From positions 32,001 through 96,000 of IMG/VR virus record IMGVR_UViG_3300014257_000015: 64,000 nt of DNA. One strand, written 5' to 3'. The position numbers and the translations under genes were made by a program. Below are positions 4,559 through 22,371 of this stretch, piece by piece. Positions within the stretch are counted from its first letter, which is position 1; the number at the start of each line of letters is the position of its first letter. Below the pieces are notes generated by a model that ran no database searches, was not told where the DNA came from, and was given only the letters and a program-made list of their open reading frames with translations. The DNA is from a virus.

Positions 4559-5036
4559 TTTGATGCCGCGTGTCGTGAGTTTCCCTCTGTTGGATGTGTA
4601 TTCAAAGTTGGCACGTGGTTTGATCACTGTGGAAGAGTTTGCGAATGAAACACGAGGCGACGGGTTAAAGCCTGTGGTGAAAGAAGTTGGAGTTTTGGAA
4701 ATGAGCAAAAGAGAAGACACCAGACAAATTGACATTGACGGAATCGTTGTGGAGAGGATCATTGATGTAATAGCCAGGGCGATTTCCACAGATAGAAAGG
4801 CTGTTGAAATACTTTTGTCTGTTCGGGTGCCTTGCTCCGAAGATTTGACGCAAGATCCATCCATTCAGACAGAGCGCGATGCGGACGGCGATCCAATTTT
4901 GACTGTAAAAGGGTTGCTGGCCGGGATAGCCGGTTGCCACGAAGGCGGGGAACCGAAGTTGTCTTTTGTGTACAGGACTGAAGACGAAAAACACAGACCA
5001 TCATTTCTACTCGGGGTGGAGTCGGTGCGACAGTGA
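4539..5036 (+). CDS. hypothetical protein (start uncertain)
   Basis: fills gap in operon, GTGA overlap with MTase. Confidence 0.6.
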   Translation: MLDMGNDLMPRVVSFPLLDVYSKLARGLITVEEFANETRGDGLKPVVKEVGVLEMSKREDTRQIDIDGIVVERIIDVIARAISTDRKAVEILLSVRVPCSEDLTQDPSIQTERDADGDPILTVKGLLAGIAGCHEGGEPKLSFVYRTEDEKHRPSFLLGVESVRQ

Positions 5037-5716
5037 GCAAAGTCAGATTGATTTTGGATGACGCCATCGCGGGCATCCAGCGGCTCGAAGATTCTAGTGT
5101 GGATTTGGTGCTGACAGATCCGCCGTATGAGTCGTTGGAAAAGTGGAGGGCGACGGGAACCACAACACGATTGCGCCATAGCAAGATGAGCTCGAATGAT
5201 TGGTTTGAAATCTTTCCGAACGAAAGATTCAATGGGCTGTTCGCCGAATGTTTTCGTGTGATGAAAACGGGTTCGCATTTATACATGTTCTGTGACGATG
5301 AAACCAGCGATATTGCGAAGGCAGAGATGGTGTCTGCTGGTTTTTGTGTTTGGAAACGGCTGGTGTGGGATAAGAGGGTGATTAGCACGGGCTATCACTA
5401 CCGAAACCAGCATGAGTTCATTTTGTTCGCAGAAAAGGGACACCGCAATCTGAATGACCGATCGATCCCGTCGATTTTGCGGTGCAAACGCATCGCGAAA
5501 GGGTACCCGGCTGAAAAGCCGGTTGAGCTTCAAAACATCCTCGTGTCACAGTCCGCTTCCGAGGGCGATGTGTTGCTGGATCCGTTTTGTGGTTCTGCGT
5601 CCAGCGGCGAAGCGGCGTTGAATTTTGGGCTAGACTATATTGGCGTGGATATCAGCGAGAAGGCATTGAAGATCGCTGTGAAGAGGCTAAAAGGCAAGGG
5701 CGCACGTGTCATTTAA
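5033..5716 (+). CDS. DNA amino-methyltransferase (N6-A/N4-C, beta class)
   Basis: TDPPY catalytic motif before YPAEKP and LDPFCGS SAM-binding motif. Confidence 0.92.
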   Translation: MSKVRLILDDAIAGIQRLEDSSVDLVLTDPPYESLEKWRATGTTTRLRHSKMSSNDWFEIFPNERFNGLFAECFRVMKTGSHLYMFCDDETSDIAKAEMVSAGFCVWKRLVWDKRVISTGYHYRNQHEFILFAEKGHRNLNDRSIPSILRCKRIAKGYPAEKPVELQNILVSQSASEGDVLLDPFCGSASSGEAALNFGLDYIGVDISEKALKIAVKRLKGKGARVI

Positions 5717-7259: not shown

Positions 7260-7595
7260 ATGTCGCAGAAAATCCAAATCAACGAAAAAGTCAGTCTGGT
7301 CATGAACCAATGGACGAAGCATAGCCGAAGCATCATAGTTGTGAGCCTACAAGACGGCTATTGGATTGAAATCAACGTTTCACAACACACTCGTTGGAAA
7401 GACAGCGCTCCAGAAGAAGTGAAGATCAATTGGCCAGCTATTGGCGGAACGACTGTTAAAAATACACAGGAGTTCATGTCATTGTTGTCGATAGCAGCAT
7501 TCGTGGCCACCAAAATTGAATCTATCAGCGAATGGAAAGAAGTTGAAAACATCGAAGAGATCTTTGGTACAAAGATTGGCGGCGAGGTGAAATGA
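7260..7595 (+). CDS. hypothetical protein
   Basis: GGAGAATCGGCCATG leader. Confidence 0.75.
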   Translation: MSQKIQINEKVSLVMNQWTKHSRSIIVVSLQDGYWIEINVSQHTRWKDSAPEEVKINWPAIGGTTVKNTQEFMSLLSIAAFVATKIESISEWKEVENIEEIFGTKIGGEVK

Positions 7596-8755
7596 TGGGA
7601 AGTGTACGAAGTAGACTTGATTCGAAGGGGCGTGAGAAAGTCCAATGCATGGTCTGCAATGAATGGCACCATCGTTTGGATGTGCACCTTAGCAAGAAAC
7701 ATGGCATGAATGCGAAAGAGTACACAGTCAAGTATCGAGGCGCCCCGACAATCTCTGAAGCAGCGAAGGAAACAGCCCGTGCAGCGCAGATCAAGGCTGG
7801 TGAAGAGCGAAAAATCATTGCATCTGCTGACATGGGAACCGGGGAAGACCTGACATCATTCAGGATTGGTGTGGTGGTGTTGAATCGTCGAACAGCGCTT
7901 TCAGAGCAAGACAAAGCTCGAATCCCAAAACACGATGAGCGTTGGATACCTGGGAAGCGTGAGAAGGAACAAATGGAGTGCATTGCACTCGGCATTAGCA
8001 ATCGCGAAAACATCTTTATCTTCGGTCCGACGGGATGTGGAAAAACCACCATCATCGAAGAAATGGCTGCATTACTTGACCAACCATGTATTCGTGTACA
8101 GGCAAATCGCAAGTTGACCATCGAGGATTTCGTTGGCCAGCAATCACTTTCGGTCGTGGACAACCAACACGTCACAGAATGGCAAGACGGCGTTCTGACG
8201 CAAGCCATGAGAAACGGGTGGTGGATCGTGCTGGATGAAATCACCGGGGCCGAGGCAGGGATTTTGCTGCGACTTCAGGCTGTGCTTGAAGGGAAGCCAT
8301 TGGTGCTCACCGAGAACGGCGGCGAGATTGTAGAACCACACCAGCACTTCCGAATCATCGCTAGTGACAACACAAATGGCCGGGGGGATAACAGCGGGTT
8401 GTACGTTGGGACAAACTTGATGAATGAAGCAACGCTAGACAGATTTGGTGTTGTGATCAAGGCCGAATATCCTGACGCCGCGACAGAGAACAACATTTTG
8501 ACATCGAAGGGCGGCGTGCCAAAGGACACTGCGCGGAAGATGGTTGAGGTGGCGGTGCGGGTGCGCGAGGCGATGTCCAACGAGACGTGCTATTGCACAT
8601 TCAGCACTCGTCGATTGATTTCTTGGGCTGCGAAAGCGCAGCAACTGGGAAACGTACGTATGGCTGCGAAGATCTCAATAACAAACAAATTATCCCCCGA
8701 AGACGCCAAGTTTGTCGACGGTTTGATACAAAGATACTTCGGAGGAGACATCTGA
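7592..8755 (+). CDS. MoxR/CobS/CbbQ-type AAA+ ATPase with N-terminal C2H2 (Ros/MucR-like) finger
   Basis: CMVC..HL..KH; GPTGCGKT; IVLDEI; NEATLDRF; FSTRRL. Confidence 0.88.
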   Translation: MMGSVRSRLDSKGREKVQCMVCNEWHHRLDVHLSKKHGMNAKEYTVKYRGAPTISEAAKETARAAQIKAGEERKIIASADMGTGEDLTSFRIGVVVLNRRTALSEQDKARIPKHDERWIPGKREKEQMECIALGISNRENIFIFGPTGCGKTTIIEEMAALLDQPCIRVQANRKLTIEDFVGQQSLSVVDNQHVTEWQDGVLTQAMRNGWWIVLDEITGAEAGILLRLQAVLEGKPLVLTENGGEIVEPHQHFRIIASDNTNGRGDNSGLYVGTNLMNEATLDRFGVVIKAEYPDAATENNILTSKGGVPKDTARKMVEVAVRVREAMSNETCYCTFSTRRLISWAAKAQQLGNVRMAAKISITNKLSPEDAKFVDGLIQRYFGGDI

Positions 8756-8844
8756 TAAACCAATAGGTTTTGCCTTTGTGGCAACTTTTCTATTGACTTA
8801 TGCGGTGTCGCTCGGTTAGAGTCGCCGCATGATGAGGACCGGCC

Positions 8845-10626
8845 ATGATCAGAAAAACAGGACACTTTGAAGCCATCGCCCGCGCCATGGCGAGGAATCA
8901 CCAGATCAAGGTGATCCCCTCTGGCGCCGAGTGTTTGACTGATGGCGAAAACATTCTGATCCCATTCAATTCAGATCACTTTGACGAGGCGAGTGCGAAT
9001 GTGTTACACGGCCTATTGGACCATGAAGTGGGCCATGTGAAAGAAGAACGTCGACACAAAGATGCTGGTCGCAAATCCCCGTTAGAAATATTGAAATCAG
9101 CGAAAAGCGACAAAGAACGATTGGTGTTTAATGCTTTCGAGGACATCAGGATTGAGCGTTCTGAATCACAGCAGTTCATTGGGGTGGCTGAGAATCTCGC
9201 TGCTGCAAGTCGGCACGAAATACAGCGATTCAAAGATAAATATGCCGCCGAAGGCGGATTGGTAAATGCGAATTTTTGGCACACGTTCGTCTGCGCCATT
9301 ATAGCAACAGCGCAAGGCGATGATGTTTCGTGGATCCCGAGCGAATACAACAAATACCTAGCTGTTGTGTCGGATGAAATTGCCGCATCGAATTCAACAT
9401 CATGGGGGCAAGAAACACACCAATTAGCGGTCAGCGTGGTGAAGAAGATCGAAAAATTCGCTGAAGAGCAGAAACAAAAACTCGAAGCAGAAGAAAAAGA
9501 AGACTCTGAAGATCTTTCAGCCTCGAAGCCGAGCGAAGGTGGCGATGAACAAGGGAAATCAAAGGCTGGCGGGTTGGAATCGGAAACACAGAAACAAGAC
9601 GACGGCGAGTTGATAAAAATCGAAGTTGCAGAAGGGGCATTAGGCGAATCGGATACAGCAGACATCAAAGATGAAACAAAAGAGCGAATCAAGGAGATGG
9701 TGCGAAGGGACATCGATCTCAACAACCGTTACATCCCGCACCCTGCAGCCGTAGCGAGAGACAAAGTCATCAAACCATTAGGTGACATAGTTGATTACAA
9801 CCGCTGTCGCGATATCGTTTCTGATCAGATAACAGGCCTTCGCGGAAAACTTCTTTCGCTCATTCGTTCCAGGCAACCATCGGTTGAATTGTCGGGGCGT
9901 CGTCACGGTAAATTGGACACTAGACGTCTGGGAACAATTGCTTCAGGAAACACCAATGTGTTCAAGGTTGAAATTGAAGGTGAGAAGCTGGACACAGCAA
10001 TCACTGTGCTGATTGACATGTCTGGTTCAATGGGCAGCGGGCATTGCCCAGGACACCCAGCACACCAAGCCAAATTGATGGCCATTGCGTTGGCAGAAAC
10101 CTTTGAAGCGCTCCAAATACCTTTTGAAGTGATTGGATTTGAAACTGATACACCAGAACGATGCGTTGGAAAAGAGGAAATAAGTGATGTGTATTCTCGG
10201 TATTCTCCGATGTTATACCATGAGTTCAAATCGTTCGATCAAAAGCACAGAACAGTAAAGCAACGGATGTCTGACATTGCCGGCTCTTTAGACAATGACG
10301 ACGGCGAGGCGCTTCTGTACGCTGCGAAGCGATTGATCCAACGTGAAGAATCGCGCAAAATCATGTTCGTTCTTTCAGACGGTTGCCCGGCCACCAGAGA
10401 TGCATCGCACGAAAGGCTAAATGGACACTTAGTCGAGGCCATCCAGCAGGCAGCATCATGGGGGATTGAGATGTTTGGAATAGGTGCATGCTCTGATCAC
10501 GTCGAACAGTTCTATACCAAGAAGTTCAACAGCAGTTGTATCGTAGTCAAGGACATCAAAACATTGGCAGTCGATGTGTACAAACTGATGCGCGATCGAC
10601 TCCTGTCGACGAATAGGAGTGTGTGA
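8845..10626 (+). CDS. CobT-like vWA protein, partner of the AAA+ ATPase
   Basis: HEVGH and FEDIRIE in N-domain, acidic linker, MIDAS DMSGS, LSDGCP. Confidence 0.85.
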   Translation: MIRKTGHFEAIARAMARNHQIKVIPSGAECLTDGENILIPFNSDHFDEASANVLHGLLDHEVGHVKEERRHKDAGRKSPLEILKSAKSDKERLVFNAFEDIRIERSESQQFIGVAENLAAASRHEIQRFKDKYAAEGGLVNANFWHTFVCAIIATAQGDDVSWIPSEYNKYLAVVSDEIAASNSTSWGQETHQLAVSVVKKIEKFAEEQKQKLEAEEKEDSEDLSASKPSEGGDEQGKSKAGGLESETQKQDDGELIKIEVAEGALGESDTADIKDETKERIKEMVRRDIDLNNRYIPHPAAVARDKVIKPLGDIVDYNRCRDIVSDQITGLRGKLLSLIRSRQPSVELSGRRHGKLDTRRLGTIASGNTNVFKVEIEGEKLDTAITVLIDMSGSMGSGHCPGHPAHQAKLMAIALAETFEALQIPFEVIGFETDTPERCVGKEEISDVYSRYSPMLYHEFKSFDQKHRTVKQRMSDIAGSLDNDDGEALLYAAKRLIQREESRKIMFVLSDGCPATRDASHERLNGHLVEAIQQAASWGIEMFGIGACSDHVEQFYTKKFNSSCIVVKDIKTLAVDVYKLMRDRLLSTNRSV

Positions 10627-11810
10627 TGGCAGTGAACTTCAAAGACGGCTACACAGTGCCATCGCACGTTCGTGAGATGTATCCTGATTTGGAGAAAAAT
10701 TTGCTGCCATTGATTAAACGTCGAGCACAACAAATGCGCCATGCCATACCCGGGATCGACGTGGAAGATGCAATACAAGAGGGGCGTCTTGCTTTGTTGT
10801 CTTGTTTGACTCGGTATGATGCTAACAAGTGTTCGTTTGATTTGAAACGCTACGTGTCCAAGACATTACGCAACACATATGCTATGATGTTGTACGAGGC
10901 GTTGGCTCAACGTCGCACTCCTCGGGCACACATACAAGACGGCGAAGGGAATTGGGGTGTTGCGCCGCGTGTCCCGATTAGTCTTGATGAAATGTTGACG
11001 TACGAACCTGTTGAAGGCGATCTCAGCCCCGAGGCGCGCATCATCGAGATGGAGCGATTGAGCTCATGCATTCGAATCAAAATGAAAATGATGGAGATGT
11101 TGACCGGGCGAGATCTTGATGTGTTCAAGTCGATGCTTGAAACGTCGTGCGAATTTCTGGAACCAGAAGAGATCCGACGCATCATAATCAGAGAGGAGCA
11201 AAGGAAACAGACGGGCGAACCGCTAAAGCACGATGGGTGCTTAGCAGCAGTGGACGCGGCCGGCGGCGACGTAAATTCATTGTCCAATATTTTGGTTGCC
11301 AATTATCTCAACATCAACAAGAATATGATTGATTGGTCCATCAACAAAATTCGCATGCTGTTCTCCAAATTGGTGAAACAAGAAGAAGTTGAAGCGCCCA
11401 ATGTCTTGGAGGCGATGGAAAAGCGTGGCCTTCCAGCAATACAAGTGAATCGAGGAACGCACTTCAGCGCAAGTTTCGTTCGTTCCGTGATGACTGTGCG
11501 GAATTTGCGTGACGAAGAGCCGCACATAGAAATACAGAGCGCATCGCATCGGGGTTGCACAAATTATTGGATGCGGAGGATTGAGCGCCACACGTGGGGG
11601 GCGGTGTTGGTCCTGAAACGCGGCGGTGAATTTGTTACCGCTGTGATTGAAGGTCGTTTGAATTTGTTGACTGGCGACGTATTCAGCCTTGAATTGGGCG
11701 GGGCGAGAGATAAACTGCCGGTTGAATGGTATCAACAGTTGTCCAGAAGATTGTCGGAGGTGTACGGTGGCCAGGAAAATACGGATGCCACATTGCGTCG
11801 GGCAGTATGA
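10623..11810 (+). CDS. phage sigma70-family factor-like protein with long C-terminal extension
   Basis: region-2-like EDAIQEGRLALLSCLTRYD...F..YV, ISLDEM, later HTH-like segment. Confidence 0.7.
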   Translation: MMAVNFKDGYTVPSHVREMYPDLEKNLLPLIKRRAQQMRHAIPGIDVEDAIQEGRLALLSCLTRYDANKCSFDLKRYVSKTLRNTYAMMLYEALAQRRTPRAHIQDGEGNWGVAPRVPISLDEMLTYEPVEGDLSPEARIIEMERLSSCIRIKMKMMEMLTGRDLDVFKSMLETSCEFLEPEEIRRIIIREEQRKQTGEPLKHDGCLAAVDAAGGDVNSLSNILVANYLNINKNMIDWSINKIRMLFSKLVKQEEVEAPNVLEAMEKRGLPAIQVNRGTHFSASFVRSVMTVRNLRDEEPHIEIQSASHRGCTNYWMRRIERHTWGAVLVLKRGGEFVTAVIEGRLNLLTGDVFSLELGGARDKLPVEWYQQLSRRLSEVYGGQENTDATLRRAV

Positions 11811-12654
11811 GCCGAAGAATGATGTGTGCAATGGAGATCCGTCGAAATCGAAGGATACCGAAGATGGTGTGCCGTGTTGGTGTCGCGATAGATGCATAGC
11901 ACTTCGGTTGTGGTGTGGTGAGCGGGGGAAAGAACCGGATCACTTTGTTGCCTTGCAAATTGTGAAAGAAAATGGTGTAGAGATGACAGCAGCCGTGCCA
12001 AAGATGAGCAACGAGATATTCGCAAACACGCTCGATAAAACCATTGCCAATTATGGCGTAATCAACGGACGCATCACCAGACCAAACAAGGGCGGTGCAC
12101 CAAAGAAGAAAATACAAGCACCCGCGCCAACCAGAGGGAAACCTGGCCCGAAGAAGGGGAAGCGGCCTTGTGTTGAGGCAAGAGTGAAATCGCGCCGGGC
12201 AGTAATAGCACGTGCGAAAGCTCGACGAGAAGAGTGCAAGTTGTTGTTCGGCCATTTCAAGAAACATCTGGAGGTGGCCTTGCATGGACAGAAGTGGAGT
12301 GCTAGAAATTCAGCTATTGCTGCTGATAGGCTGTACATTAAAGACAGGTTTGACAATTCCGGCTACGCTACGGTGTATTGCAAAACGAGGATAGGGCGGG
12401 ATACGCCAGTGGTGACAGCAAGGCTGAAAACGGCGACGTTGACCTTGATGATAGGGTTGCCGGTGACTTTAGAACAGCTGGAATCACAGATAGGAAAGGC
12501 CACGTGCAAAAAGCTATCCCCATACAGAATATTGGACGGATATTTCATCACAGCCGTGAACAACGTCGACAAAGAGCGTGCTGCTTTGATCGCAGAGACT
12601 ATCGGCCGACTGGTGAAATCAGGTATTATAAATTTGCCTGCCGCCGCGCAATGA
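11785..12654 (+). CDS. hypothetical basic protein with Cys-rich N-terminus
   Basis: long ORF overlapping end of sigma-like gene; start chosen at MPHCVG. Confidence 0.65.
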   Translation: MPHCVGQYEPKNDVCNGDPSKSKDTEDGVPCWCRDRCIALRLWCGERGKEPDHFVALQIVKENGVEMTAAVPKMSNEIFANTLDKTIANYGVINGRITRPNKGGAPKKKIQAPAPTRGKPGPKKGKRPCVEARVKSRRAVIARAKARREECKLLFGHFKKHLEVALHGQKWSARNSAIAADRLYIKDRFDNSGYATVYCKTRIGRDTPVVTARLKTATLTLMIGLPVTLEQLESQIGKATCKKLSPYRILDGYFITAVNNVDKERAALIAETIGRLVKSGIINLPAAAQ

Positions 12655-12742: not shown

Positions 12743-13705
12743 ATGAGAAAACGTGTTGTGATAGTTGGGGGTGGAGTCTCAGGGCTCATAGCATCGTATG
12801 TGTTCAGCGGAATCCCCGGTGTAGAAACAAGAGTATTTGAAGAGAAAACAACCGGCGGCGAATTTCTAGCTGGCGGCTTGAAGTACATCCACCACACAGA
12901 AGCAATGGTGGATATGTTTGATGAGCTAGGCCTGTGTCACTCAAATTTCATGGTGAATGGTGGCATATTGTTGAGCGACGTTGTTCAGCCGTACCCAAAG
13001 TGCTTCCAAGACATGGCACCCGAACGAGCCGCCCGCATCCAGGATGACCACTGGAGGAAGACGCGCCGATCAGAGCCGGGTTCTGATTCCAAGAAAGCAA
13101 TGAATGATCCGGCGAGCACGAAGCCAAGGCAAGCCCTTCGCTGTGACTTTGTGGATATGATCAATGAGCTATCAGATTGCGCAGCGATCACCAACGCAGC
13201 CGTAGTTGAGATCAACCAAAATGATTTGCTGACCAGCCAGAAAGAACGGGTGCTGTTTGATTTCGCGGTGGTGACTTTGCCGCTGTGGGTGATTAGGGAA
13301 TTGGTGAAGTGGTATGTGCCGCACGGTATGGCTATGGCCCTCAACGTGGCAAAGGTGAATGTTCGCGGGGATCGCTTTGCGCGCTGGGATTACGTCTACA
13401 CGCCCTACACGCCGTCCAATTGTGTCCATCGATTTTCACCGGTGGCAGGCGGATATTCGGTTGAGACGAATGGTGAATTGAATCTTGGTGAAATCGAGTC
13501 TGACTTGAATTTCCTTTGGCCTGAAGGTTGGGCAATGATGGAACTGAAAGAGGGGCTAAAGGGCCACCTGCTTTCATTGGACACTAAGCCTGATTGGCCG
13601 CGTAACATAGCACCAATCGGAAGGTTTGCAAAATGGGACAGCCGGGCAACCATCGATGTAGCGTTGGAAGACTCGATAGCGTTAGCCAAGAGGTGGCTTG
13701 GATGA
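12743..13705 (+). CDS. FAD-dependent oxidoreductase (Glf/UDP-galactopyranose mutase/HemY-like fold)
   Basis: VVIVGGGVSGL Rossmann motif, FEEKTTGG, C-terminal GRFAKW. Confidence 0.8.
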   Translation: MRKRVVIVGGGVSGLIASYVFSGIPGVETRVFEEKTTGGEFLAGGLKYIHHTEAMVDMFDELGLCHSNFMVNGGILLSDVVQPYPKCFQDMAPERAARIQDDHWRKTRRSEPGSDSKKAMNDPASTKPRQALRCDFVDMINELSDCAAITNAAVVEINQNDLLTSQKERVLFDFAVVTLPLWVIRELVKWYVPHGMAMALNVAKVNVRGDRFARWDYVYTPYTPSNCVHRFSPVAGGYSVETNGELNLGEIESDLNFLWPEGWAMMELKEGLKGHLLSLDTKPDWPRNIAPIGRFAKWDSRATIDVALEDSIALAKRWLG

Positions 13706-14649
13706 ATCTTTGGTCAGAGATGTGGGAAAGGCAGAAGAAGCAACAGGAGCACTTCAACCTCGACCCCAAAGCGATGTCACCAATCGTGAAGGCTGGTGTT
13801 GCGAAGGATTTGACGCTGGGATTGCTTGAAGAGGCGGGGGAGCTTTCGAGGGCTGTGGCTCGATTCAAGGCACACCTTTTGAAAGACAGGCCTGTGGACA
13901 AGATCAATGTCTGCGAAGCTTCGGTTGATGTGCTGAAATATCTGATAGCGATTGCGCAATTATATGGCGTCTCGTCTGAAGAGATGTTCAACACTTTCAT
14001 GCGAAAAAGCGACGTTGTTGATGACAAGGCGCGTTGCGAACGGGTGGAACTGGAGCGCCACACCAAGCTGATTGTGAGTGATCTGGATGGTTGCATTGCA
14101 GACCTATCTTCGTGGCAGGACGAAATGGATCGACAGCGCGGGAACGCTCCGATGAATGATGCCACATTGGCGATGCTCGAAAAATTGAAAGAGGAGTTTT
14201 ACAGATGCGGCGGGTTTTTGAATTTGCCGCCGATACCTGGAGCAATCGAAGCAACCAAGAAGATACGTGAAGCAGGATACAAACTGGCCATCATCACAGC
14301 CAGGCCAGACTGGCAATACAAAAGAGTGTACGCTGATACAATCCAGTGGCTTCAGAAACACGACATACAATATGATTTGATTTTGTTTCAGAAGGACAAG
14401 GCAGAAGCCGTGGTGGATCACATCTTTCCGGCGCGCCCTCTGTGTTTCGTTGAAGATAGGAGTAAACACGCCATCGAGGTCGCTAGCATTGGTGTGCAAG
14501 TGTTGTTTCTGACTTCTGGCAAAAGCGAATTGGCGCCTCACCCTTTGATTCAGCGAGTTCAAGGCTGGGGTGAAATCGTCGAGTACATCAATGCAACACA
14601 AGATGGGAGAAGTGAATATGGGACACCCACATTTGATGGGAACAGTTGA
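13702..14649 (+). CDS. MazG/all-alpha NTP pyrophosphatase fused to HAD 5'(3')-deoxyribonucleotidase
   Basis: N-domain LLEEAGEL...EASVDVL; C-domain SDLDGCIAD, IITAR, K, FVED; ATGA coupling. Confidence 0.82.
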   Translation: MNLWSEMWERQKKQQEHFNLDPKAMSPIVKAGVAKDLTLGLLEEAGELSRAVARFKAHLLKDRPVDKINVCEASVDVLKYLIAIAQLYGVSSEEMFNTFMRKSDVVDDKARCERVELERHTKLIVSDLDGCIADLSSWQDEMDRQRGNAPMNDATLAMLEKLKEEFYRCGGFLNLPPIPGAIEATKKIREAGYKLAIITARPDWQYKRVYADTIQWLQKHDIQYDLILFQKDKAEAVVDHIFPARPLCFVEDRSKHAIEVASIGVQVLFLTSGKSELAPHPLIQRVQGWGEIVEYINATQDGRSEYGTPTFDGNS

Positions 14650-15784
14650 GTACAGGCCGGTAACGTTTAGCAGCGGGAATGGCCCTTGGCTGTATGTTTA
14701 TCATGATGGAGAAACAAAGACAGATTATCTGGACTTTTTCTGTGATGTCGGAACGTCCAGCCTTGGTTACGGCGGGAAAGAACAACAGGATGTCATTTCC
14801 AGGATGTATCATTTGCCTGCTCACGCGCCGAACATATTTGGCTTCGATGAGCGAGACCGAGCGGCACGGCGCCTTTGTGAAATGACGCAAATGGATCGCG
14901 TGTTCTTTTGCAATAGCGGAGCAGAATCAGTTGAGGCGGCAATCAAACTGGCGCGGCTTTGGTCGTACAAGAAAGGCTGTGGCGCTGATCACATCTACAG
15001 TTATGTCGGCGGATTCCATGGGCGGACATACGGGGCGTTGTCCGCCGGTGACGGCGCGCCATATCACTACGAAGGTTTCGGCAAGATGTTGGACGGGGTG
15101 TTTCACTTCAAAGAAGCATGGGAAATCACAGACCCCGAAACTTGCGCCATCATTCTCGCCCCCTGCTTCGGCAACAACGACATTCGAGAGTACCCGGATG
15201 GTTGGTTGAAAGATCTCAGAGAATTCTGTGACAACAACGGGATTCTACTGATCTTTGATGAGGTGCAAACAGGCTCGGGGCGCACCGGCATGATGACGTA
15301 CGCGCAACGATGCGGCGTGAAGCCAGACATTATGACGTTGGCGAAGGGCATTGGGATGGGTGCCCCTGTAGGTGCCATGTTGGCGTCGGCTGACATCGCC
15401 GAAGTGTTCACGCCAGGAACGCATTTCAGCACATTCGGCGGGAATCCGTTGTCTTGTGCCTTCGTGAATGGGATGTTGGACTGGTTGGAACGTCCTGGAA
15501 ATCTGGAGTCTGTGAATCGAAAGGGCGAGTTCATAAAAGAAACATTGCAACGATTCGGATGGGCAAAGAACATTCGCGGCCCAGGAATGCTGATTGGATT
15601 TGATATCGACATTGACACATCTGAATTCGCGGCCCGCTGCTTAGAAAATCAGTTGCTCATCGGGGCCTTTAGAAAGGGGCCTGGGGCTGTAAAAATCAGC
15701 CCGCCGCTGAACATCGAAAAAGAAGACATCATCAAGGGATTGACCATATTGGATGAATCCTACAAGGAGCTGATCAATGGCTGA
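14618..15784 (+). CDS. class-III PLP aminotransferase (ArgD/ornithine aminotransferase-like, altered substrate site)
   Basis: YLDF, FCNSGAESVEAAIKLAR, FHGRT, LIFDEVQTGSGRTG, PDIMTLAKG (PLP Lys), STFGGNP. Confidence 0.93.
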   Translation: MGHPHLMGTVEYRPVTFSSGNGPWLYVYHDGETKTDYLDFFCDVGTSSLGYGGKEQQDVISRMYHLPAHAPNIFGFDERDRAARRLCEMTQMDRVFFCNSGAESVEAAIKLARLWSYKKGCGADHIYSYVGGFHGRTYGALSAGDGAPYHYEGFGKMLDGVFHFKEAWEITDPETCAIILAPCFGNNDIREYPDGWLKDLREFCDNNGILLIFDEVQTGSGRTGMMTYAQRCGVKPDIMTLAKGIGMGAPVGAMLASADIAEVFTPGTHFSTFGGNPLSCAFVNGMLDWLERPGNLESVNRKGEFIKETLQRFGWAKNIRGPGMLIGFDIDIDTSEFAARCLENQLLIGAFRKGPGAVKISPPLNIEKEDIIKGLTILDESYKELING

Positions 15785-16724
15785 GCCGAAAGTCACATTG
15801 CTGACTTGGACGAAAGACCCGTTGGAAACTGTGTACTCTGTATGGTGGCAGTCGAAGAACGAAAAACCGTTGATGACACCGGATGAGGTGAAAGAAAATG
15901 TCCCGCCGTCTGAGGTCGAAGAGCTATTCAAAGCGGTAATAGCACAACGAATCCCTGTTGGAGAACACCTGGATTTCGTGTTTGTTATGGAGAACGTTTC
16001 TGTGTCTTGGCGTGAGCAGGCCGTTCGCCACCGCATCGGGGTGAAAGTAGGCGGCGAACGTTTAGGGGTGGACGTAATACCGAACCTGGCTGATTCAAGC
16101 TGGTGGTCACAATCCATGCGCATCCAGAATATGGGAAGTTTCTTCAGCAACGGCGCATACAGGATGCCAAAATCATTGGATGCTCACCCGGAAGCTAAAG
16201 CTGTTTTTTGCGACATCATGTGTGACATCGAGGCTGCGTACAATAATCTGATTGACATGGGTGTGCCGATGGAAGACGCCAGAGAGGTTATCCCACTCGG
16301 CGCGCAACATCGGATCAGCTGGAAGCTTAACATAGGCGCTCTCCAGCACATCATGGAAAAGAGAGGTTGCTGGATACTGCAACTTGGAACGTGGGGGCCG
16401 ATCATTACCGGGATGGTGGATGAGTTGGCCAACAAGGTTCACCCTGTGTTTCGCGAATTGGTGACGCCGCCTTGCATCCGAGGGGATAAATTCAACTCGT
16501 GTGTGTTCATGGAAGAGTGTCGCCGCCGTTTGACAGGTGATGATGAATTGCCACCGTGCCCACTCCACTACAACTACCACGTTCTGCCTGAATCGCAACG
16601 TGGAATGATTCCGCTGTTGGTCAAGAAATTGGAAATCCCGATGAAGTCGGAGATGATGCGACGGTCGGAAGATTATGCGAATTTTTGGGGCCGAGATCCG
16701 TTCACAGGTGAAAAAATTGTGTGA
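15777..16724 (+). CDS. thyX: divergent flavin-dependent thymidylate synthase (ThyX-like)
   Basis: EHLDFVF..ENVS...EQAVRHR, SQSMR after a ~20 aa insertion, GVPMEDAREVIP, CIRG...C.F.E. Confidence 0.8.
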   Translation: MAEPKVTLLTWTKDPLETVYSVWWQSKNEKPLMTPDEVKENVPPSEVEELFKAVIAQRIPVGEHLDFVFVMENVSVSWREQAVRHRIGVKVGGERLGVDVIPNLADSSWWSQSMRIQNMGSFFSNGAYRMPKSLDAHPEAKAVFCDIMCDIEAAYNNLIDMGVPMEDAREVIPLGAQHRISWKLNIGALQHIMEKRGCWILQLGTWGPIITGMVDELANKVHPVFRELVTPPCIRGDKFNSCVFMEECRRRLTGDDELPPCPLHYNYHVLPESQRGMIPLLVKKLEIPMKSEMMRRSEDYANFWGRDPFTGEKIV

Positions 16725-17301
16725 CAAGATAATCGTGTTGGACGGGGTGAATGGGACAGGGAAATCAACGAGCGCAAAAGTTCTGCGCGAATTGACAGGG
16801 TGGCCCATCATACGGGCGTTTCGTGATGACTCTGATTCACATCTAGGATACAACGCGCCTATGGAGGGAGAACTCAAAAAACTCGGCGTTCCTGTGAACA
16901 CATACGTTGATGACTTGTACGTTGCTGATTTTTTGCGCGCAACACGGCGAGGAGCGATATTGGATAGATCGATGCCATCGGCATTGGCATATCCGATGAT
17001 GCGCGGCGAAGAGATAACACCAAAGACAGCAAAAAAATTGGTTGTTGTTTGGGAGCAGATTCTGCGCGCTGCGAAGATACCTGTGGTTTATGTTTGGATG
17101 CAAGCATCGCACGAAGTGGTGAAAGAGCGTTGTGTTGGACGGTGGCATCCAAACAAAGCACAATACGCCAAATTGGAATCGACTTTCAAGAGAGTTTTCG
17201 TGACGTTGTCGCTGTGCAAAAGAAGAGTGGTGACCACAGAGCTTAGTGAAAACGAAACGATCAAAACCGTTCGCCAGGTGGTGGATGATGCCGACGATTG
17301 A
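16717..17301 (+). CDS. dNMP (thymidylate-like) kinase
   Basis: IIVLDGVNGTGKST P-loop, ILDRSMPSALAY; overlaps thyX end; start approximate. Confidence 0.82.
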   Translation: MCDKIIVLDGVNGTGKSTSAKVLRELTGWPIIRAFRDDSDSHLGYNAPMEGELKKLGVPVNTYVDDLYVADFLRATRRGAILDRSMPSALAYPMMRGEEITPKTAKKLVVVWEQILRAAKIPVVYVWMQASHEVVKERCVGRWHPNKAQYAKLESTFKRVFVTLSLCKRRVVTTELSENETIKTVRQVVDDADD

Positions 17302-17620
17302 TGAAATCAGAGTTTGGTTGAGTGGCCAAGAGATCGAAGGATTGCCCGCTTTGCGTGAGCGTGAGCGTGAGCCAGAAGCGAAACATCCGCCGAAGGCAAT
17401 GAAAACGCCTGCCGATATGCGCAACCAAGGGAGATATCGGCTGCACCGTGATGACTCCGGTCACGTCATCGATGCCACTTTGTATTTTGGAAAGTACAAT
17501 GGGTTCTGCCTAAGTAAACTTTCAACCAATAGAGAAGGGAAGGACTACCTGTCATGGATGTTGAAACAGGACTTCCCTGGTGAATTGGTGGAGTTGATCA
17601 CCAGTATGGGATGGGCGTGA
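17285..17620 (+). CDS. small protein with FGKY..YL.W motif (exonuclease X C-terminal/DUF3820-like)
   Basis: LYFGKYNG....DYLSWMLKQDFP; coupled to dnaE. Confidence 0.6.
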   Translation: MMPTIDEIRVWLSGQEIEGLPALREREREPEAKHPPKAMKTPADMRNQGRYRLHRDDSGHVIDATLYFGKYNGFCLSKLSTNREGKDYLSWMLKQDFPGELVELITSMGWA

Positions 17621-20600
17621 TGGAAGACTTTGTAGGGTTGCACAACCATTCGGATGCTAGCCAACTAGACGGTGCTGGGAAAATATCCGAATACATCAAG
17701 GCCGTAGTCGAACGCAAGGCGCCTTCAATCGCTTTCACCGAACACGGGACAATGCGCGGGTACCAGACGCAATATGATCAATGCAAAGAACACAACATCA
17801 AGCCAATTTATGGGATTGAATTCTATGTGGCCAATGACATGCGTCGAAAGGGCCTAACCGAAGACGAGCGCGCGGACATCACGAAAGGCAAACCTCGAAG
17901 CGAGCACAAAGATGCCATCAAGAAGTATGAAGAGCAACACGGCATCCGAGACAGATGGCATTTGACGTGCTGGGCGAAGAACGCAGAGGGAATGCGGAAT
18001 ATGATGCGCTTGGCGTCGCTTGCATACACCGAGGGGTTCTACTACAAGCCGCGCATTGACTTGAACGAACTGTACAAGTACAAAGAGGGGTTGGTGGTGG
18101 CGACGGGATGTTGTTCCAGCGTCATCTATGACAGGGCCGTGTTGGGGAAAAAGAAGCTTGCATTAGAAATTGCCGATGAGATGCGTGAACAATTTGGGGA
18201 AGATTTGTGGATTGAGATACAACCGCACGCAATCGAAGAGCAGGTGATCTCCAACCAGTTGGCACTGGAATTGAAGGATAGGTGGGGGAAGAAGGCGCGC
18301 CTGCTTGCAACGCAAGACGCACATTATGTCAGGCCGGAAGATTGGGAAACGCATGAAGTGATGCTCTGTATCGGAACCAATGATGTGATGAGCAACCCCG
18401 AGCGTTTTCGTTTCACCGGGAATGATTTTCATTTCAAAACCCGAAAGGAAATGTTTGCGAAGTTCAGATCAACACACGCTTACTTGACCAGAGAGCAAGT
18501 CAAAGAATCTTTGGACAACACGTTGGTGTTCATGGACACAATATCTGATGGCCTGGTTACCATCGATAAAGACAAGTGTCTCATGCCACCAATACCGGTT
18601 CCTGAGAAGTATGACGGCAATGAGTTCGCATACTTGAAGGATTTGTGTTTGCGCGGTTGGGCATGGCGTGACATACCGGCCCGCGCCACTCTGTTGTCAA
18701 AGCGCGAGGGCGGCGACGAAGCAGAATGGCTGAAACGATACGTGGCAAGGTTGAAAAGAGAACTGACAGCAATCAAAAGCCAAAAGTTTGTTTCATATTT
18801 CCTTCTTGTTCACGATTTATACAATTGGGTGCGCCAGCAGGAAATCATGTGTGGGCCTGGACGAGGCTCAGCGGCGGGTTCGCTCGTTGCATACCTGACC
18901 GGCATCACATCGGTTGATCCGATAGAGCACAATCTGTTGTTCGAACGATTCATAAGCCCAACGCGTGTCGACCAGCCCGATATTGATATGGACTTTGAGG
19001 ATCGGCGCCGACAAGAGATCATCGAGTATCTGCGAAACAAATACGGCAATGATAAGGTGTGTCAGATTGCCACCGTAGGCAAGCTTTCGGGGAAGGCTGT
19101 AATCAGAGACATATCGCGTGTTCTTGAAGTGCCGTATGCAGCAGTAAACCAAGTCACCAATTCCATCATCGAAAGAAGCAGCGGCGACGAGCGGGCCAGC
19201 CAGACGGTTGAGGACTCTTTCAAAGAATTCAAGGTGTGTCGCGAATTCAACGCCAAATACCCGGATGTTCTGAGATATGCGAAGAAGCTCGAAGGAATGG
19301 CCAAGACGCTTGGAATACACGCAGCAGGCGTCGTGACTTCTCCTGAACCGTTGATGAATCTTGTCCCATTGGAGACGAGAAAGCATGATGGCCGTGACGT
19401 TGTGGTGAGCGCCATCGATATGTACGGGGTGGCAGCGTGTGGGTTGCTGAAATTGGACGTTCTTGGGCTGCGAACGCTGAGTGTCATTCGTGAATGTCTA
19501 GAAGCAGTTGAACAACACACTGGTGAAAAGATCGACCTCGAACGCATTGATTTGAATTTGAAAGACGTTCTTCAAGGATTCACAGATCACGATTATTGTG
19601 GCGTGTTTCAGTATGATTCCCCGGGTGCCGACAAGATTTGCACAGGCGTTGAGTTCAAACACTTCGAGGACATCGCTGCCATGACAGCGTTGAATCGACC
19701 GGGCACCGCGCGAAGCGGCCTAGCCACGCAATATGTGGCACGAAAGCGCAACCCGAAATTGGTTGAAAAGGCATCGTTTCACCCAGCGGTGAGTGAAATC
19801 ACGAAAGACACATTGGGAATCATCGTGTATCAAGAGCACGTGATGCGTATTTTCACCGACATAGCCGGGTTTGCCCCAGCAACGGCGGACAGCTTGCGCA
19901 AGAAAATAGCCAAAAAATTTGGCGATGAGACGATTGGAAAAGAACGCGAGAATTTCATTAAGGGTGCGATGGAAAATTGGGGTGACCGAGGGATGACCAA
20001 AGAGATCGCAGGAAAGATAATGGATGCGATCACGTTCTTTGGATGTATACCTGGTGAATCGTTGGTTTTAGTGGTCGAGGGAAGTGATGAAGACTTGTGC
20101 GCATTGCGAGAGGAAAGTGTTGGCAAGGGGATTGTGCTCAATACACTACCAGAGGGAATACAGGAAGGAAAGAACGGTGATCGGGAATCCTGTGAGTTCA
20201 GAGCACAACAAGATAGGGGTGCTTGGGCGCGGGTGGAAGTCAGCGCCTGGGGCGAGGGTCATTGCGTCGAACAAGTTGCAATCCAAGAAGATAACAGGGG
20301 CATTAAATCCGTCTTGGAAGGGCGGACACATCAAAAACTTCAAACTAGCAAGGAACAGGTTGTTGAAGGAAGAGAAGGGATGTTGTCGTTGCGGCACTTC
20401 GTTGATCAAGGGATCAGGGCCGAATCAAAAGTCATTTCACATCCACCACAAGAATCGAAACAAAGCGGACAACCGAGAAGAGAACTTGGAAGTGCTGTGT
20501 CAAAGTTGCCACAGCAAAGAACACACGAAAGAAAAAATTGCTGGGCGACTTGGAAAGAAATCGAAACGCTAAAGGTTGGTGATTGGATAGTGTCTTTTGA

Positions 20601-22371
20601 TGACGACATTCGCCCCGAGCTAAATAGAGTGAAAAGAATAGAGTGCACAGGGGTGAAGCCTGTCCGCAGGATGACACTCGAACAAGGCGAAATTTGGGCG
20701 ACCGGATCGCATTGGTGGATGAATAGCACAGGGGAATATATAGAGACAAAGGATTGCACGCCTGGTACAGAATTGCGTGTTGGTGATTCGATTTTCAAGG
20801 TTCTTGGTAATCGAAAAGATGGGCGATTGAAGACTTGGGACTTGGAGTGCGAATTCGAACCTAGCAACTATGCCGTCAGATTATTCAACAGCGATTCGTG
20901 TAATTACTTGATAAGCCATAATAGTTATGGATTCAACAAGTCGCATGCCACCGCATATGGAATCATCGCGTATTGGGAAATGTTCTTGAAAATACGCCAC
21001 CCGATCGAATTCTATTGGGCGCTATTGAAGAACGAACCTGACCGAATACGAATCCAACAGATCGCTAAAGATGCTAAAAAACATGGCATAGAATTGTTGC
21101 CGCCGTCGGTGGTGAATAGCGGTAAGCATTTCACAATAGACAGAGCAAATAATGCCATTCGTGGTTCGCTCGTCGACATCAAGGGCGTAGGTGATGCTGC
21201 GTCTGAATCAATCATGGTCGCCCAACCATACAAGGACTTCGGTGACTTGATTCAACGCGTGGACCGCCGAAAAGTACACAAGGGTGTCATTGTGGCATTG
21301 GCGAAGGCCGGGGCGTTAGATGACGTGGTGCCGAATCCTAAGTGGCTGATAGAAAACATCGAAGATTTTTGGACAGAGTTGGGGAAGAAGGGGTGGACAG
21401 AGAAAACAGAAAGATTGTTGCGAGATTCGGCTGATGCTCCGCAGTTCACCACCGAAGAGAGGCAGGTTGTGGCCTCGAAGGTTAGTCCACTCGCATTCGG
21501 GAAACATCCGCTCGATGCGTATGCGAATTTCATGGAACGTAGTGTGAAGGTTCCCATCGCGGCAATGTCTGATGAAGACTTTTTCAAAGACAATGACAAT
21601 CAAGGCGTATTCATCGCTGGCGTCGTTGTTGAGGTGAAGTACAATCAAATTGGAGATTTCAACACAGGTGAGCTTCCCAGTGAGTTGGAAAGGAAACAGA
21701 TGTTCTGGGGCCGCCGTTACGCCAATGTTAATGTCGAAGATCTTGGCGGGAAACAAAATAGGATCAAAGTGGATTTTGACATCTTTGATGATTATCGAGA
21801 TGTGGTTGATTCTGGAATAGGAACGCCTGTTGTTCTTCATGCTTTTGTGAACGCGAGGTTTGAGAATTTACGTTGTCATTTCATGATCAATCTGGAAGAG
21901 TACAGGCTAGCAGTCGAAGCAGGACAAGAGTTGACAGTGTGGCAAAGCATAGTCGCTGGTCGCCATCCAGCCAAAGAATATGAATGGAAAGATCCGTCAA
22001 AGTTGATCAAATACAAGACCCCAGAGGGCGAAGAGCGCGAGGTGAAAAGGCGTTCCAATGCAATCAGGAACAAAGCATTTTGGGATCGCGTATCACCTTC
22101 GTTTGTTGGCGTTGTCACGCACGTTCGGCCAAAATATGACAAGAATGGAAACCGGATGGCATTCTTGGGATTGCTGGACGGTGGTTCGCGATTCATCAGC
22201 GTGATAGCATTCGCATCCAGTTGGACAAAAGAAGTGCGACGTGTTTTGAAACCCGGGGCGTTGGTGAAAATAGAATTGGACTCCAAAAGAGACAAACGCA
22301 GTTGGTCATATTTCTACAACGGCGGAAAACTCAGGGTTCTGAGGTCAGCGCCATCAACCACATCACCATAG
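17620..22371 (+). CDS. dnaE: DNA polymerase III alpha subunit, intein-containing
   Basis: PHP LHNHSDAS.LDG, GRGSAAGS, PDIDMDF, HAAGVV, KLDVLGL, YQE, GFNKSH, OB folds. Confidence 0.97.
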   Translation: MEDFVGLHNHSDASQLDGAGKISEYIKAVVERKAPSIAFTEHGTMRGYQTQYDQCKEHNIKPIYGIEFYVANDMRRKGLTEDERADITKGKPRSEHKDAIKKYEEQHGIRDRWHLTCWAKNAEGMRNMMRLASLAYTEGFYYKPRIDLNELYKYKEGLVVATGCCSSVIYDRAVLGKKKLALEIADEMREQFGEDLWIEIQPHAIEEQVISNQLALELKDRWGKKARLLATQDAHYVRPEDWETHEVMLCIGTNDVMSNPERFRFTGNDFHFKTRKEMFAKFRSTHAYLTREQVKESLDNTLVFMDTISDGLVTIDKDKCLMPPIPVPEKYDGNEFAYLKDLCLRGWAWRDIPARATLLSKREGGDEAEWLKRYVARLKRELTAIKSQKFVSYFLLVHDLYNWVRQQEIMCGPGRGSAAGSLVAYLTGITSVDPIEHNLLFERFISPTRVDQPDIDMDFEDRRRQEIIEYLRNKYGNDKVCQIATVGKLSGKAVIRDISRVLEVPYAAVNQVTNSIIERSSGDERASQTVEDSFKEFKVCREFNAKYPDVLRYAKKLEGMAKTLGIHAAGVVTSPEPLMNLVPLETRKHDGRDVVVSAIDMYGVAACGLLKLDVLGLRTLSVIRECLEAVEQHTGEKIDLERIDLNLKDVLQGFTDHDYCGVFQYDSPGADKICTGVEFKHFEDIAAMTALNRPGTARSGLATQYVARKRNPKLVEKASFHPAVSEITKDTLGIIVYQEHVMRIFTDIAGFAPATADSLRKKIAKKFGDETIGKERENFIKGAMENWGDRGMTKEIAGKIMDAITFFGCIPGESLVLVVEGSDEDLCALREESVGKGIVLNTLPEGIQEGKNGDRESCEFRAQQDRGAWARVEVSAWGEGHCVEQVAIQEDNRGIKSVLEGRTHQKLQTSKEQVVEGREGMLSLRHFVDQGIRAESKVISHPPQESKQSGQPRRELGSAVSKLPQQRTHERKNCWATWKEIETLKVGDWIVSFDDDIRPELNRVKRIECTGVKPVRRMTLEQGEIWATGSHWWMNSTGEYIETKDCTPGTELRVGDSIFKVLGNRKDGRLKTWDLECEFEPSNYAVRLFNSDSCNYLISHNSYGFNKSHATAYGIIAYWEMFLKIRHPIEFYWALLKNEPDRIRIQQIAKDAKKHGIELLPPSVVNSGKHFTIDRANNAIRGSLVDIKGVGDAASESIMVAQPYKDFGDLIQRVDRRKVHKGVIVALAKAGALDDVVPNPKWLIENIEDFWTELGKKGWTEKTERLLRDSADAPQFTTEERQVVASKVSPLAFGKHPLDAYANFMERSVKVPIAAMSDEDFFKDNDNQGVFIAGVVVEVKYNQIGDFNTGELPSELERKQMFWGRRYANVNVEDLGGKQNRIKVDFDIFDDYRDVVDSGIGTPVVLHAFVNARFENLRCHFMINLEEYRLAVEAGQELTVWQSIVAGRHPAKEYEWKDPSKLIKYKTPEGEEREVKRRSNAIRNKAFWDRVSPSFVGVVTHVRPKYDKNGNRMAFLGLLDGGSRFISVIAFASSWTKEVRRVLKPGALVKIELDSKRDKRSWSYFYNGGKLRVLRSAPSTTSP
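20044..20922 (+). mobile_element. class-1 intein in DnaE (293 aa; ~137 aa HINT core + ~156 aa insert)
   Basis: exteins ITFFG|...|SYGFNKSH; starts CIPGESLV, WKEIETLKVGD, block B ATGSH, block F TWDLE..PSNY, ends SHN/S. Confidence 0.93.
20087..20572 (+). CDS. HNH homing endonuclease encoded in the +1 frame inside the intein
   Basis: CAHC..VLARGLCSIHY, NPSWKGG, CCRCG..HIHHKNRNKADNREENLEVLCQSCHSKEH; GAGGGA SD just upstream of ATG. Confidence 0.9.
   Translation: MKTCAHCERKVLARGLCSIHYQREYRKERTVIGNPVSSEHNKIGVLGRGWKSAPGARVIASNKLQSKKITGALNPSWKGGHIKNFKLARNRLLKEEKGCCRCGTSLIKGSGPNQKSFHIHHKNRNKADNREENLEVLCQSCHSKEHTKEKIAGRLGKKSKR

Follow-up and report, generated by a model that had tools for sequence, protein, structure and literature searches.

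What do five overlapping genes make that lie, in an uncultured phage, directly ahead of the gene for the replicative polymerase? The genes occupy positions 12743-17301 of a stretch of 64,000 nucleotides (the window; positions 32,001 to 96,000 of IMG/VR record IMGVR_UViG_3300014257_000015), which belongs to a complete, terminally repeated, metagenome-derived genome of 105,429 bp. They share one strand (+) and encode a flavoprotein (designated FLAVO), a MazG-HAD fusion protein, a class-III aminotransferase, a ThyX-like protein and a thymidylate-kinase-like (Tmk-like) kinase, after which the ~4.6-kb module continues through one small open reading frame (ORF) into dnaE (Table 1). A preliminary description of this DNA had read the module as a new pathway for the modification of a DNA base, and all five of its gene calls were upheld by Pfam, PHROG and NCBIfam scans and by inspection of the start codons, which placed the junctions at an ATGA overlap (13702-13705) and at further overlaps that range from 8 to about 50 nt; translation of the five is coupled. 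The reading preferred here, tentatively and at somewhat less than even confidence, is that the module constitutes a nucleotide-pool pathway to an amine-bearing, 5-substituted dUMP, which would be used by the phage DnaE. Full-text literature searches found no paper describing the five-gene combination, in keeping with the earlier impression that it was unlike described pathways.

The layout of the module is that of pre-replicative base replacement: a synthase, a dNMP kinase and a hydrolase, with functions assigned by family membership, stand beside the phage's own polymerase. Phages SPO1, SP8 and phi-e, which contain 5-hydroxymethyl-deoxyuridine (5-hmdU), T4 with 5-hydroxymethyl-deoxycytidine (hmdC) and the dZ phages (PurZ/MazZ/DatZ) likewise combine a nucleotide-level synthase, a dNMP kinase and a hydrolase of the canonical nucleotide. 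The likeness extends to a dCMP deaminase feeding dUMP, a phage polymerase and a location in or near the replication module. The synthase of the present module, however, is of the ThyX family, whereas theirs belong to the ThyA family; the hydrolase is a MazG-NT5C fusion, and the omega-type aminotransferase and the flavoprotein have no counterpart in those systems. For the present module, moreover, a modified base is predicted rather than demonstrated.

To our knowledge, every characterised thymidine hypermodification begins with a hydroxymethylase of the ThyA type, and a kinase and transferase pair completes it on DNA. In the complete 105,429-bp genome no match was found to ThyA (PF00303), to a dUTPase, or to the 5-hmdU DNA kinase (HMUDK) and the amino-acid/diamine:DNA transferase (ADDT, or aGPT-Pplase; PF18723 and PF18724). 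This rules out the post-replicative route as known so far, and any thymidine modification must take place at the level of the nucleotide pool. Both the pre-replicative layout, with its dedicated kinase and its hydrolase of dNTPs or dNMPs, and the lack of aGPT-Pplase-type genes had been pointed out in the preliminary description, and both points held, the second for the complete genome.

When viral and metagenome contigs were scanned with profiles of FLAVO, the ThyX-like protein and the aminotransferase, more than 100 loci were collected. All five genes were contiguous in every related contig of the DnaE lineage that was sufficiently long (roughly 25 or more distinct contigs), where they are located between DnaE and a pair of genes coding for a sigma factor and a protein without assigned function. 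The contiguity persists at DnaE identities of 45-68% and at FLAVO identities down to 24-30%, and the order of the aminotransferase, ThyX and kinase genes is permuted between loci. The set of genes is thus genuine, and its conservation is tight.

Additional genes occur within the module of some relatives. A Rossmann methyltransferase-like gene is inserted at three different positions, and a clear class-I S-adenosylmethionine (SAM) methyltransferase, a protein of the short-chain dehydrogenase/reductase (SDR) epimerase/dehydratase family and a second aminotransferase were each found in one relative. For accessory family c1 (250-276 aa), the methyltransferase assignment derives from a motif-I-like FGGSGW...D and from sub-threshold Pfam matches, and its comparison with the clear Methyltransf_11 protein of locus L053 gave no significant tie (hhalign probability 0.2%). 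Insertions of this sort, of small-molecule-type methyltransferase genes and an SDR gene, would be typical of tailoring steps. Separately, an MT-A70 (N6-adenine) methyltransferase gene lies inside or at the edge of the module in L021 (12839-13423) and L053 (651-1280).

A more conventional explanation, on balance unlikely, is that the module serves the ordinary supply of dTTP. The ThyX-like protein would then produce dTMP, the kinase would be a dTMP kinase, and MazG-HAD would sanitise or recycle the pool (dUTP to dUMP). FLAVO and the aminotransferase would play supporting roles, for example in the redox cycle of the ThyX flavin or in a serine-synthesis-like supply of one-carbon units and amino acids, and the virion DNA would be canonical apart from methylation. 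The conservation of the module could, in that case, largely be inherited together with the replication region. The insertion of methyltransferase-like and SDR genes inside the module argues against such a role, as does the behaviour of the aminotransferase.

The latter is a genuine class-III enzyme by its Aminotran_3 domain, PLP (pyridoxal phosphate) lysine and pyridine-nitrogen Asp, and its true start is probably located between 14603 and 14636. Its best match in the PDB is ArgD (2eh6, E 5e-70). Nevertheless it is not an ordinary housekeeping ArgD or ornithine aminotransferase (OAT), judging from its scores and motifs, because it falls below the cut-off of all 69 NCBIfam families (best score 309 bits versus a cut-off of 372), the EPxQGEGG motif is replaced and a conserved Arg has become Lys. 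Within its clade K259 (the PLP lysine), D230 (the DEVQ Asp that contacts the pyridine nitrogen), Q233 and R152 are invariant, and EPxQGEGG gives way to APxxGNNxV, which reads APCFGNND in the protein of the window. The Glu/Arg switch pair is not kept, Asn taking the place of its Glu, and the Arg that has become Lys in this subtype is the C-terminal one that binds carboxylate, in 'xRxxPPL'.

The distribution of this clade is equally particular. Among the viral contigs, 28 loci carry an aminotransferase that scores at least 377 bits against the module profile, and in all of them a ThyX-like gene and the kinase are adjacent; the 22 other viral class-III aminotransferases (99-263 bits) are accompanied by none of the partners. 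A further locus, L165, is cut off inside its aminotransferase gene and still contains FLAVO, MazG-HAD and the ThyX-like gene. The clade is thus found only in the module, beside the ThyX-like gene and the kinase. The kinase, in turn, is present whenever the module aminotransferase is present and absent otherwise: both occur in L111, a separate lineage, and both are missing where a ThyX-like protein stands without the aminotransferase, as in a PolA-phage lineage and in Pbunavirus. This pairing would fit an aminotransferase product that is a dNMP in need of its own kinase. Together, clade specificity and co-variation go beyond shared synteny, and both, like the altered substrate-site motifs, count against a mere supply of dTTP. 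In one relative (L014, 11928-14753) two module-type aminotransferases were observed, with 51% and 40% identity to that of the window and with the kinase gene between them.

The MazG-HAD protein provides the hydrolase of the proposed pathway. Although its longest ORF begins at 13633, translation probably initiates at ATG 13702, within the overlap with the FLAVO stop codon. NT5C is matched at 32.4 bits (cut-off 24.8) and MazG at 21 bits, just under its cut-off of 22, and the protein also matches the PHROG families of 5'-3' deoxyribonucleotidases and PNK-phosphatases. In 16 homologues the MazG half retains the acidic metal-binding motif EExxE...D..K, and the HAD half retains all four motifs in the NT5C arrangement (DxDxxxxD, (T/S)ARP, K, ED). 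The NT5C family comprises 5'(3')-deoxyribonucleotidases that prefer dUMP and dTMP. These intact catalytic motifs would support a pathway acting on the pool. They also bear on the supply of dTTP, since, if both acted on thymidylate, an NT5C-type nucleotidase fused to MazG would undo the work of a neighbouring dTMP synthase. The serine-pathway-like variant, with a dehydrogenase, an aminotransferase and an HAD phosphatase serving one-carbon supply, was ranked low, because the HAD half is nucleotidase-type rather than SerB-like and is fused to MazG.

The kinase is assigned by its P-loop GxNGxGKS, its DRSxPSxxAY motif and a match to the PHROG thymidylate kinases (6e-14). It scores 20 bits against TIGR00041 (cut-off 83) and may start alternatively at GTG 16708 or TTG 16717. 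Its constant presence bears on another reading, a very improbable one, in which the product is not destined for DNA at all: the module would yield an inhibitor or a signal, in the form of an aminonucleoside or nucleotide analogue. The enzyme classes involved (flavoprotein or SDR, aminotransferase, MazG, HAD phosphatase) parallel Pur10, Pur4, Pur7 and Pur3 of puromycin-type 3'-amino-3'-deoxyadenosine logic, which combines an oxidoreductase, an aminotransferase, an NTP pyrophosphatase and a monophosphatase. The families differ from those of the Pur enzymes, however. The module always includes a ThyX-type base-modifying enzyme and the Tmk-like kinase, which opposes a dephosphorylated end product, and it always adjoins the replicative polymerase.

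The first gene of the module encodes the flavoprotein. Pfam matches of FLAVO are confined to its N-terminal Rossmann region (Thi4/NAD_binding_8-type), no match to the GLF family was found in Pfam at E up to 0.01, and a profile search of the PDB likewise matched the Rossmann start alone. For the AF2 model (pLDDT 92), the best structural match is the UDP-galactopyranose mutase (UGM) 4dsg (Z 27.4 over 317 residues, rmsd 3.0, 16% identity), about 3 Z units above the protoporphyrinogen oxidases (PPOX; Z 22-24), followed by amine oxidases at Z of about 19-20. Enzymes with this kind of fold are known to oxidise C-N and C-C bonds and to use covalent flavin chemistry. The ESM Atlas offered a generic pointer to small Amino_oxidase-family proteins. 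The 173 FLAVO homologues, of about 320 aa, are all metagenomic, and many are encoded on contigs of about 100 kb. They share invariant charged and aromatic motifs (GGLKYIH, DHYRKTRR, MNDP, WDYVYTPYTP, GRFAxW). In the cultured-phage collection tblastn gave no match, and among 185,579 species genomes the family occurred only on one 1.2-kb contig of a metagenome-assembled genome; apart from that small contig it is confined to phages.

Both its Thy1 domain and its fold place the fourth protein in the ThyX family. It is the sole Thy1 gene product of the genome, its score of 48.7 bits against TIGR02170 is well below the equivalog cut-off of 87.9, and its best match in the cultured-phage collection has 25-28% identity. 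A search of the PDB with the single sequence gave no match; the profile reached T. maritima ThyX, aligning to residues 127-187. All matches of the model above Z 5 were chains of the ThyX family (Z 11.8-13.7), including 5chp (Z 13.7, 200 residues, rmsd 2.7) and the PolB UMP methylase (Z 12.2). With the canonical enzymes (T. maritima TM0449 and M. tuberculosis ThyX) and the PolB UMP/dUMP methylase it has in common the fold (Z 12-14), RHR, SxR and the equivalents of R169 and R196; the counterparts of the arginines that bind dUMP and FAD are retained. The contiguous signature RHRx7-8S(xRY), in contrast, is broken: RHR (84-86) and SQSMR (111-115) are separated by an insertion of ~25 residues, modelled with low confidence, and the Tyr is replaced by Ile. 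Unlike canonical ThyX, the protein has changed equivalents of T. maritima R165, H178 and E182 and a Cys-rich C-terminal extension of ~115 aa with four invariant Cys (C198, C233, C242, C261). The subfamily comprises 223 representatives at E up to 1e-30. Six of its members (P0121, P0122, P0180, P0202, P0209 and P0249) measure 630-870 aa and align to the profile over two or three separate stretches, which suggests large insertions, possibly inteins, or fusions.

On the basis of these assignments the following sequence of steps is proposed. The dCMP deaminase would be the likely source of dUMP. The ThyX-like protein would add a one-carbon unit from methylene-tetrahydrofolate to C5, which would yield dTMP, 5-hydroxymethyl-dUMP or a trapped exocyclic-methylene adduct. 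FLAVO would then oxidise the C5 side chain to a carbonyl, by oxidation of the hydroxymethyl or methyl group or by cleavage of an N-alkyl adduct in the manner of MnmC on tRNA. An amine would be installed or exchanged by the omega-type aminotransferase, the simplest product being 5-aminomethyl-dUMP, and the new dNMP would be phosphorylated by the Tmk-like kinase. The MazG-NT5C fusion, finally, would remove canonical competitors by degrading dTTP through dTMP to thymidine, by degrading dUTP, or both. In relatives with an additional SAM-methyltransferase-like gene or SDR, the product would be tailored further, for example by N-methylation.

Precedents for chemistry of this kind come from two sources. 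The first is post-replicative thymidine hypermodification, as in PhiW-14, SP10, ViI, M6, PaMx11 and SH-Ab 15599 (PMC5889632, PMC8989533, PMC13458397). As proposed here, these systems place an amine group on the thymine C5 methyl, use PLP and flavin tailoring enzymes, and draw on combinatorial gene sets; in PaMx11, a 5-aminomethyl-dU intermediate arises via a flavin-dependent lyase (PMC5889632, PMC8989533, PMC13458397). They depend, however, on a ThyA-type dUMP hydroxymethylase, a 5-hmdU DNA kinase and an amino-acid/diamine:DNA transferase, all three of which are missing from the present genome, and their PLP enzymes are decarboxylases, whereas that of the module is a class-III transaminase. 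The second source is the tRNA xm5U pathway, in which MnmE/MnmG and MnmC lead from cmnm5U through nm5U to mnm5U (PMC10723064). Its set of steps (flavin- and methylene-tetrahydrofolate-dependent transfer of a C5 methylene, capture of an amine, FAD-dependent oxidative trimming to aminomethyl and SAM-dependent N-methylation) matches the ThyX-like protein and FLAVO, together with the methyltransferase-like gene in relatives. The proteins differ, with ThyX in place of MnmG and a UGM/amine-oxidase fold in place of the DAO-type domain of MnmC. In addition, the proposed substrate is a free deoxynucleotide instead of tRNA, and a transaminase and a kinase are added.

A probably related arrangement is found in Pbunavirus. 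The replication module of Pbunavirus phage 109 encodes a 'polyamine oxidase' (333 aa), small ORFs, ThyX, an HAD_PNKP-C-like protein, an exonuclease and DnaE. Pbunavirus and Wifcevirus have a core of flavoprotein, Cys-containing divergent ThyX, HAD phosphatase and DnaE in the same order as here. The Pbunavirus ThyX is homologous to that of the window (98.6% probability), including two of the Cys positions; it differs in lacking the RHR histidine, and neither an aminotransferase nor a Tmk-like kinase accompanies it. In the virion DNA of phages F8 and 14-1, about a quarter of the thymidines, located at TG sites, give way to a derivative of the sugar-alcohol type, for which the responsible genes are unknown (PMC12191111). 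Because Pbunavirus has both a probably related core and hypermodified thymidines, it is plausible by analogy that the flavoprotein and ThyX take part in the chemistry of the thymidine side chain.

The same parallel invites a mixed pre- and post-replicative reading of the kind proposed for Pbunavirus, which is improbable here. The FLAVO-ThyX-HAD core would make a reactive precursor, such as 5-hmdU or a C5 adduct formed via flavin, for incorporation into DNA; the amine group would be finished on the DNA, or the aminotransferase would only make the amine donor, and a fraction of the thymidines would be affected, in a sequence context. In its favour are the Pbunavirus gene order from 'polyamine oxidase' to DnaE, the homologous ThyX, a flavoprotein that shares GxGxxG and a C-terminal LGRFAxW with FLAVO, and the derivative of F8 and 14-1 (about 25% of T, at TG sites; PMC12191111), and the UGM fold would suit covalent flavin-sugar or iminium chemistry. 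The flavoprotein homology is weak, however, neither HMUDK nor ADDT, nor any other transferase recognisably acting on DNA, is encoded in the complete genome, and the strict pairing of aminotransferase and dNMP kinase argues that the amine is already on the nucleotide before polymerisation.

Several considerations weigh against the pool pathway. We infer every substrate and product in it, as well as the arrival of the nucleotide in DNA, from sequence. Part of the co-conservation is shared descent, because all contigs with the full module come from a single broad lineage of DnaE phages, in which the replication region is syntenic. We know of no aminotransferase that acts on a nucleotide base, nor of an alcohol oxidase with the UGM/PPOX/amine-oxidase fold, for which the oxidation of an alcohol would be unusual. 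In L111, which has the ThyX, aminotransferase and kinase genes, neither FLAVO nor MazG-HAD is detectable, and FLAVO may therefore not be obligatory between ThyX and the aminotransferase. The similarity between FLAVO and the Pbunavirus 'polyamine oxidase' is limited (hhalign 81%, E 1e-5, collinear at GxGxxG and LGRFAxW). Finally, the same ThyX subfamily (split motif, four Cys, 43-52% identity) occurs without the other four genes in the PolA-phage lineage, where it follows a nucleoside 2-deoxyribosyltransferase-like (NDT-like) protein and a YfbR-type HD 5'-nucleotidase, in one case with a dCMP deaminase. As the subfamily is large and stands alone there, its product must be usable alone, and could be either dTMP or hydroxymethyl-dUMP (hmdUMP).

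By the same token, the ThyX-like protein may be an ordinary dTMP synthase, since its subfamily stands alone in the PolA phages and its binding arginines are kept. The dTTP-supply explanation gains accordingly from the retained RHR, SxR, R169 and R196 of the genome's only thymidylate synthase, from the occurrence of the subfamily alone beside a dCMP deaminase and PolA, and from the frequent occurrence, in phages, of ThyX beside a dNMP kinase (PMC5648845). The PolA loci (L081, 5297-8912; L094; L102; L103; L113) share a context of SNF2 helicase, UDG, PD-(D/E)XK nuclease, AAA_24, the two nucleotide-handling proteins just named, ThyX-like and PolA; L081 also contains a radical SAM/SPASM protein, and L102 is the locus with the dCMP deaminase.

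The same findings bear on the specific route put forward in the preliminary description, in which a ThyX hydroxymethylase is followed by FLAVO as an oxidase of the hydroxymethyl to the formyl group. Direct support for it was not obtained, and the solitary ThyX of the PolA phages, the L111 lineage without FLAVO and a fold not associated with alcohol oxidation weaken it. The series hydroxymethyl-dUMP, formyl-dUMP, aminomethyl-dUMP is consequently only one of several routes to the same kind of product, as the ThyX subfamily stands alone and the FLAVO fold is not alcohol-oxidising. Others include flavin-dependent oxidation of the thymine methyl via an exocyclic methylene, and amine capture with oxidative trimming in the manner of MnmEG/MnmC (PMC8989533, PMC10723064). 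The remainder of the earlier interpretation fared better: its layout, the co-occurrence of the five families beside a polymerase (which it had proposed as a check), the Glf-like fold of the flavoenzyme and an aminotransferase that is no ordinary ArgD were all borne out. A Thy1-family hydroxymethyluridylate synthase has been hypothesised, not tested, for phage SP-15 (PMC5977210).

Table 1. Features of the window discussed in the text
Feature	Position	Strand	Basis or remark
N6/N4 DNA methyltransferase	5033-5716		
CobS-like AAA+ protein	7592-8755	+	
CobT/VWA protein	8845-10626	+	
Sigma-70-like protein	10623-11810	+	
Conserved protein without assigned function, 280-320 aa	about 11785-12654	+	between sigma-70-like gene and module
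FLAVO, 320-aa FAD-type flavoprotein, UGM/protoporphyrinogen-oxidase/amine-oxidase fold	12743-13705	+	Pfam, AF2 model
MazG (NTP pyrophosphohydrolase) fused to NT5C-type HAD 5'-deoxynucleotidase	13702-14649	+	Pfam, PHROG, motifs
Class-III (omega-type) PLP aminotransferase	14570-15784	+	Aminotran_3, 252 bits
ThyX-like flavin-dependent pyrimidine C5 one-carbon transferase (predicted)	15777-16724	+	Thy1, 69.1 bits (cut-off 24.8)
Thymidylate-kinase-like P-loop dNMP kinase (predicted)	16675-17301	+	dNK, 29 bits
Small ORF	17288-17620	+	overlaps kinase end and dnaE start (17611)
DnaE-type replicative polymerase, 1586 aa	17611-22371	+	
UDG	about 32068-32496		
dCMP deaminase	33518-33964	+	dCMP_cyt_deam_1, 95 bits
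C5 DNA methyltransferase (cytosine)	46946-48010		

The small ORF at the end of the module belongs to a conserved family (c0) that precedes DnaE in most loci and whose longer members carry ExoX-like_C; it is probably a polymerase accessory rather than an enzyme of the pathway. By tblastn, DnaE has 61-68% identity to its relatives over residues 5-812 and 1043/1105-1577, and its best match among cultured phages is at 35%; in the cultured-phage collection no near relative of the phage was found, and no DNA match to the window. Compared with relatives of 1280 aa, DnaE contains an insertion of ~230-290 aa (window 20044-20925, residues about 812-1105), and several relatives have insertions of other sizes near the same place. 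The insertion is not recognisable as an intein, and Pfam finds neither an intein nor another domain in it.

All large genes of the replication region around the module are on the + strand. The region also encodes a DnaB-type helicase, a primase, the N6/N4 DNA methyltransferase, RecA and SbcCD. The dCMP deaminase, UDG and two methyltransferases, which the preliminary description had invoked, are all present. The trio of CobS-like, CobT/VWA and sigma-70-region-2 proteins (7592-11810) is conserved and is followed by the protein of 280-320 aa; in nearly all relatives this set immediately precedes the module. The CobS-like protein has a weak N-terminal match to a Ros/MucR-type zinc finger. Just upstream of the C5 cytosine methyltransferase gene, a 274-aa protein (45598-46422) carries a LacI-type periplasmic-binding (sugar-binding) domain, with no DNA-binding domain detected, and a 261-aa protein (56796-57581) shows a weak match to DUF2284 (predicted metal-binding). 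From 34 kb to 64 kb there are ~30 ORFs, most of which match no family.

If the module acts as its anatomy suggests, it would represent a second, purely nucleotide-pool route to thymidine hypermodification. ThyX-family one-carbon chemistry would be diverted from methylation, and a PLP transaminase and a UGM-fold flavoenzyme would act on a nucleotide. The resulting DNA base would be positively charged and would probably prevent cleavage by restriction enzymes, perhaps also by CRISPR nucleases. The most far-reaching version holds that ThyX, the UGM-fold flavoprotein and the omega-transaminase form a wholly pre-replicative route to 5-aminomethyl-deoxyuridine (in relatives N-methylated or tailored in another way), which replaces thymidine in a widespread, uncultured lineage of DnaE phages. 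It is itself distinctly unlikely. If true, it would provide the first example of a transaminase working on the side chain of a nucleobase, and a pathway of DNA hypermodification would for the first time be based on ThyX. The module could also help in finding the genes behind the thymidine modification of therapeutic Pbunavirus phages, which probably have a related flavoprotein-ThyX-HAD core.

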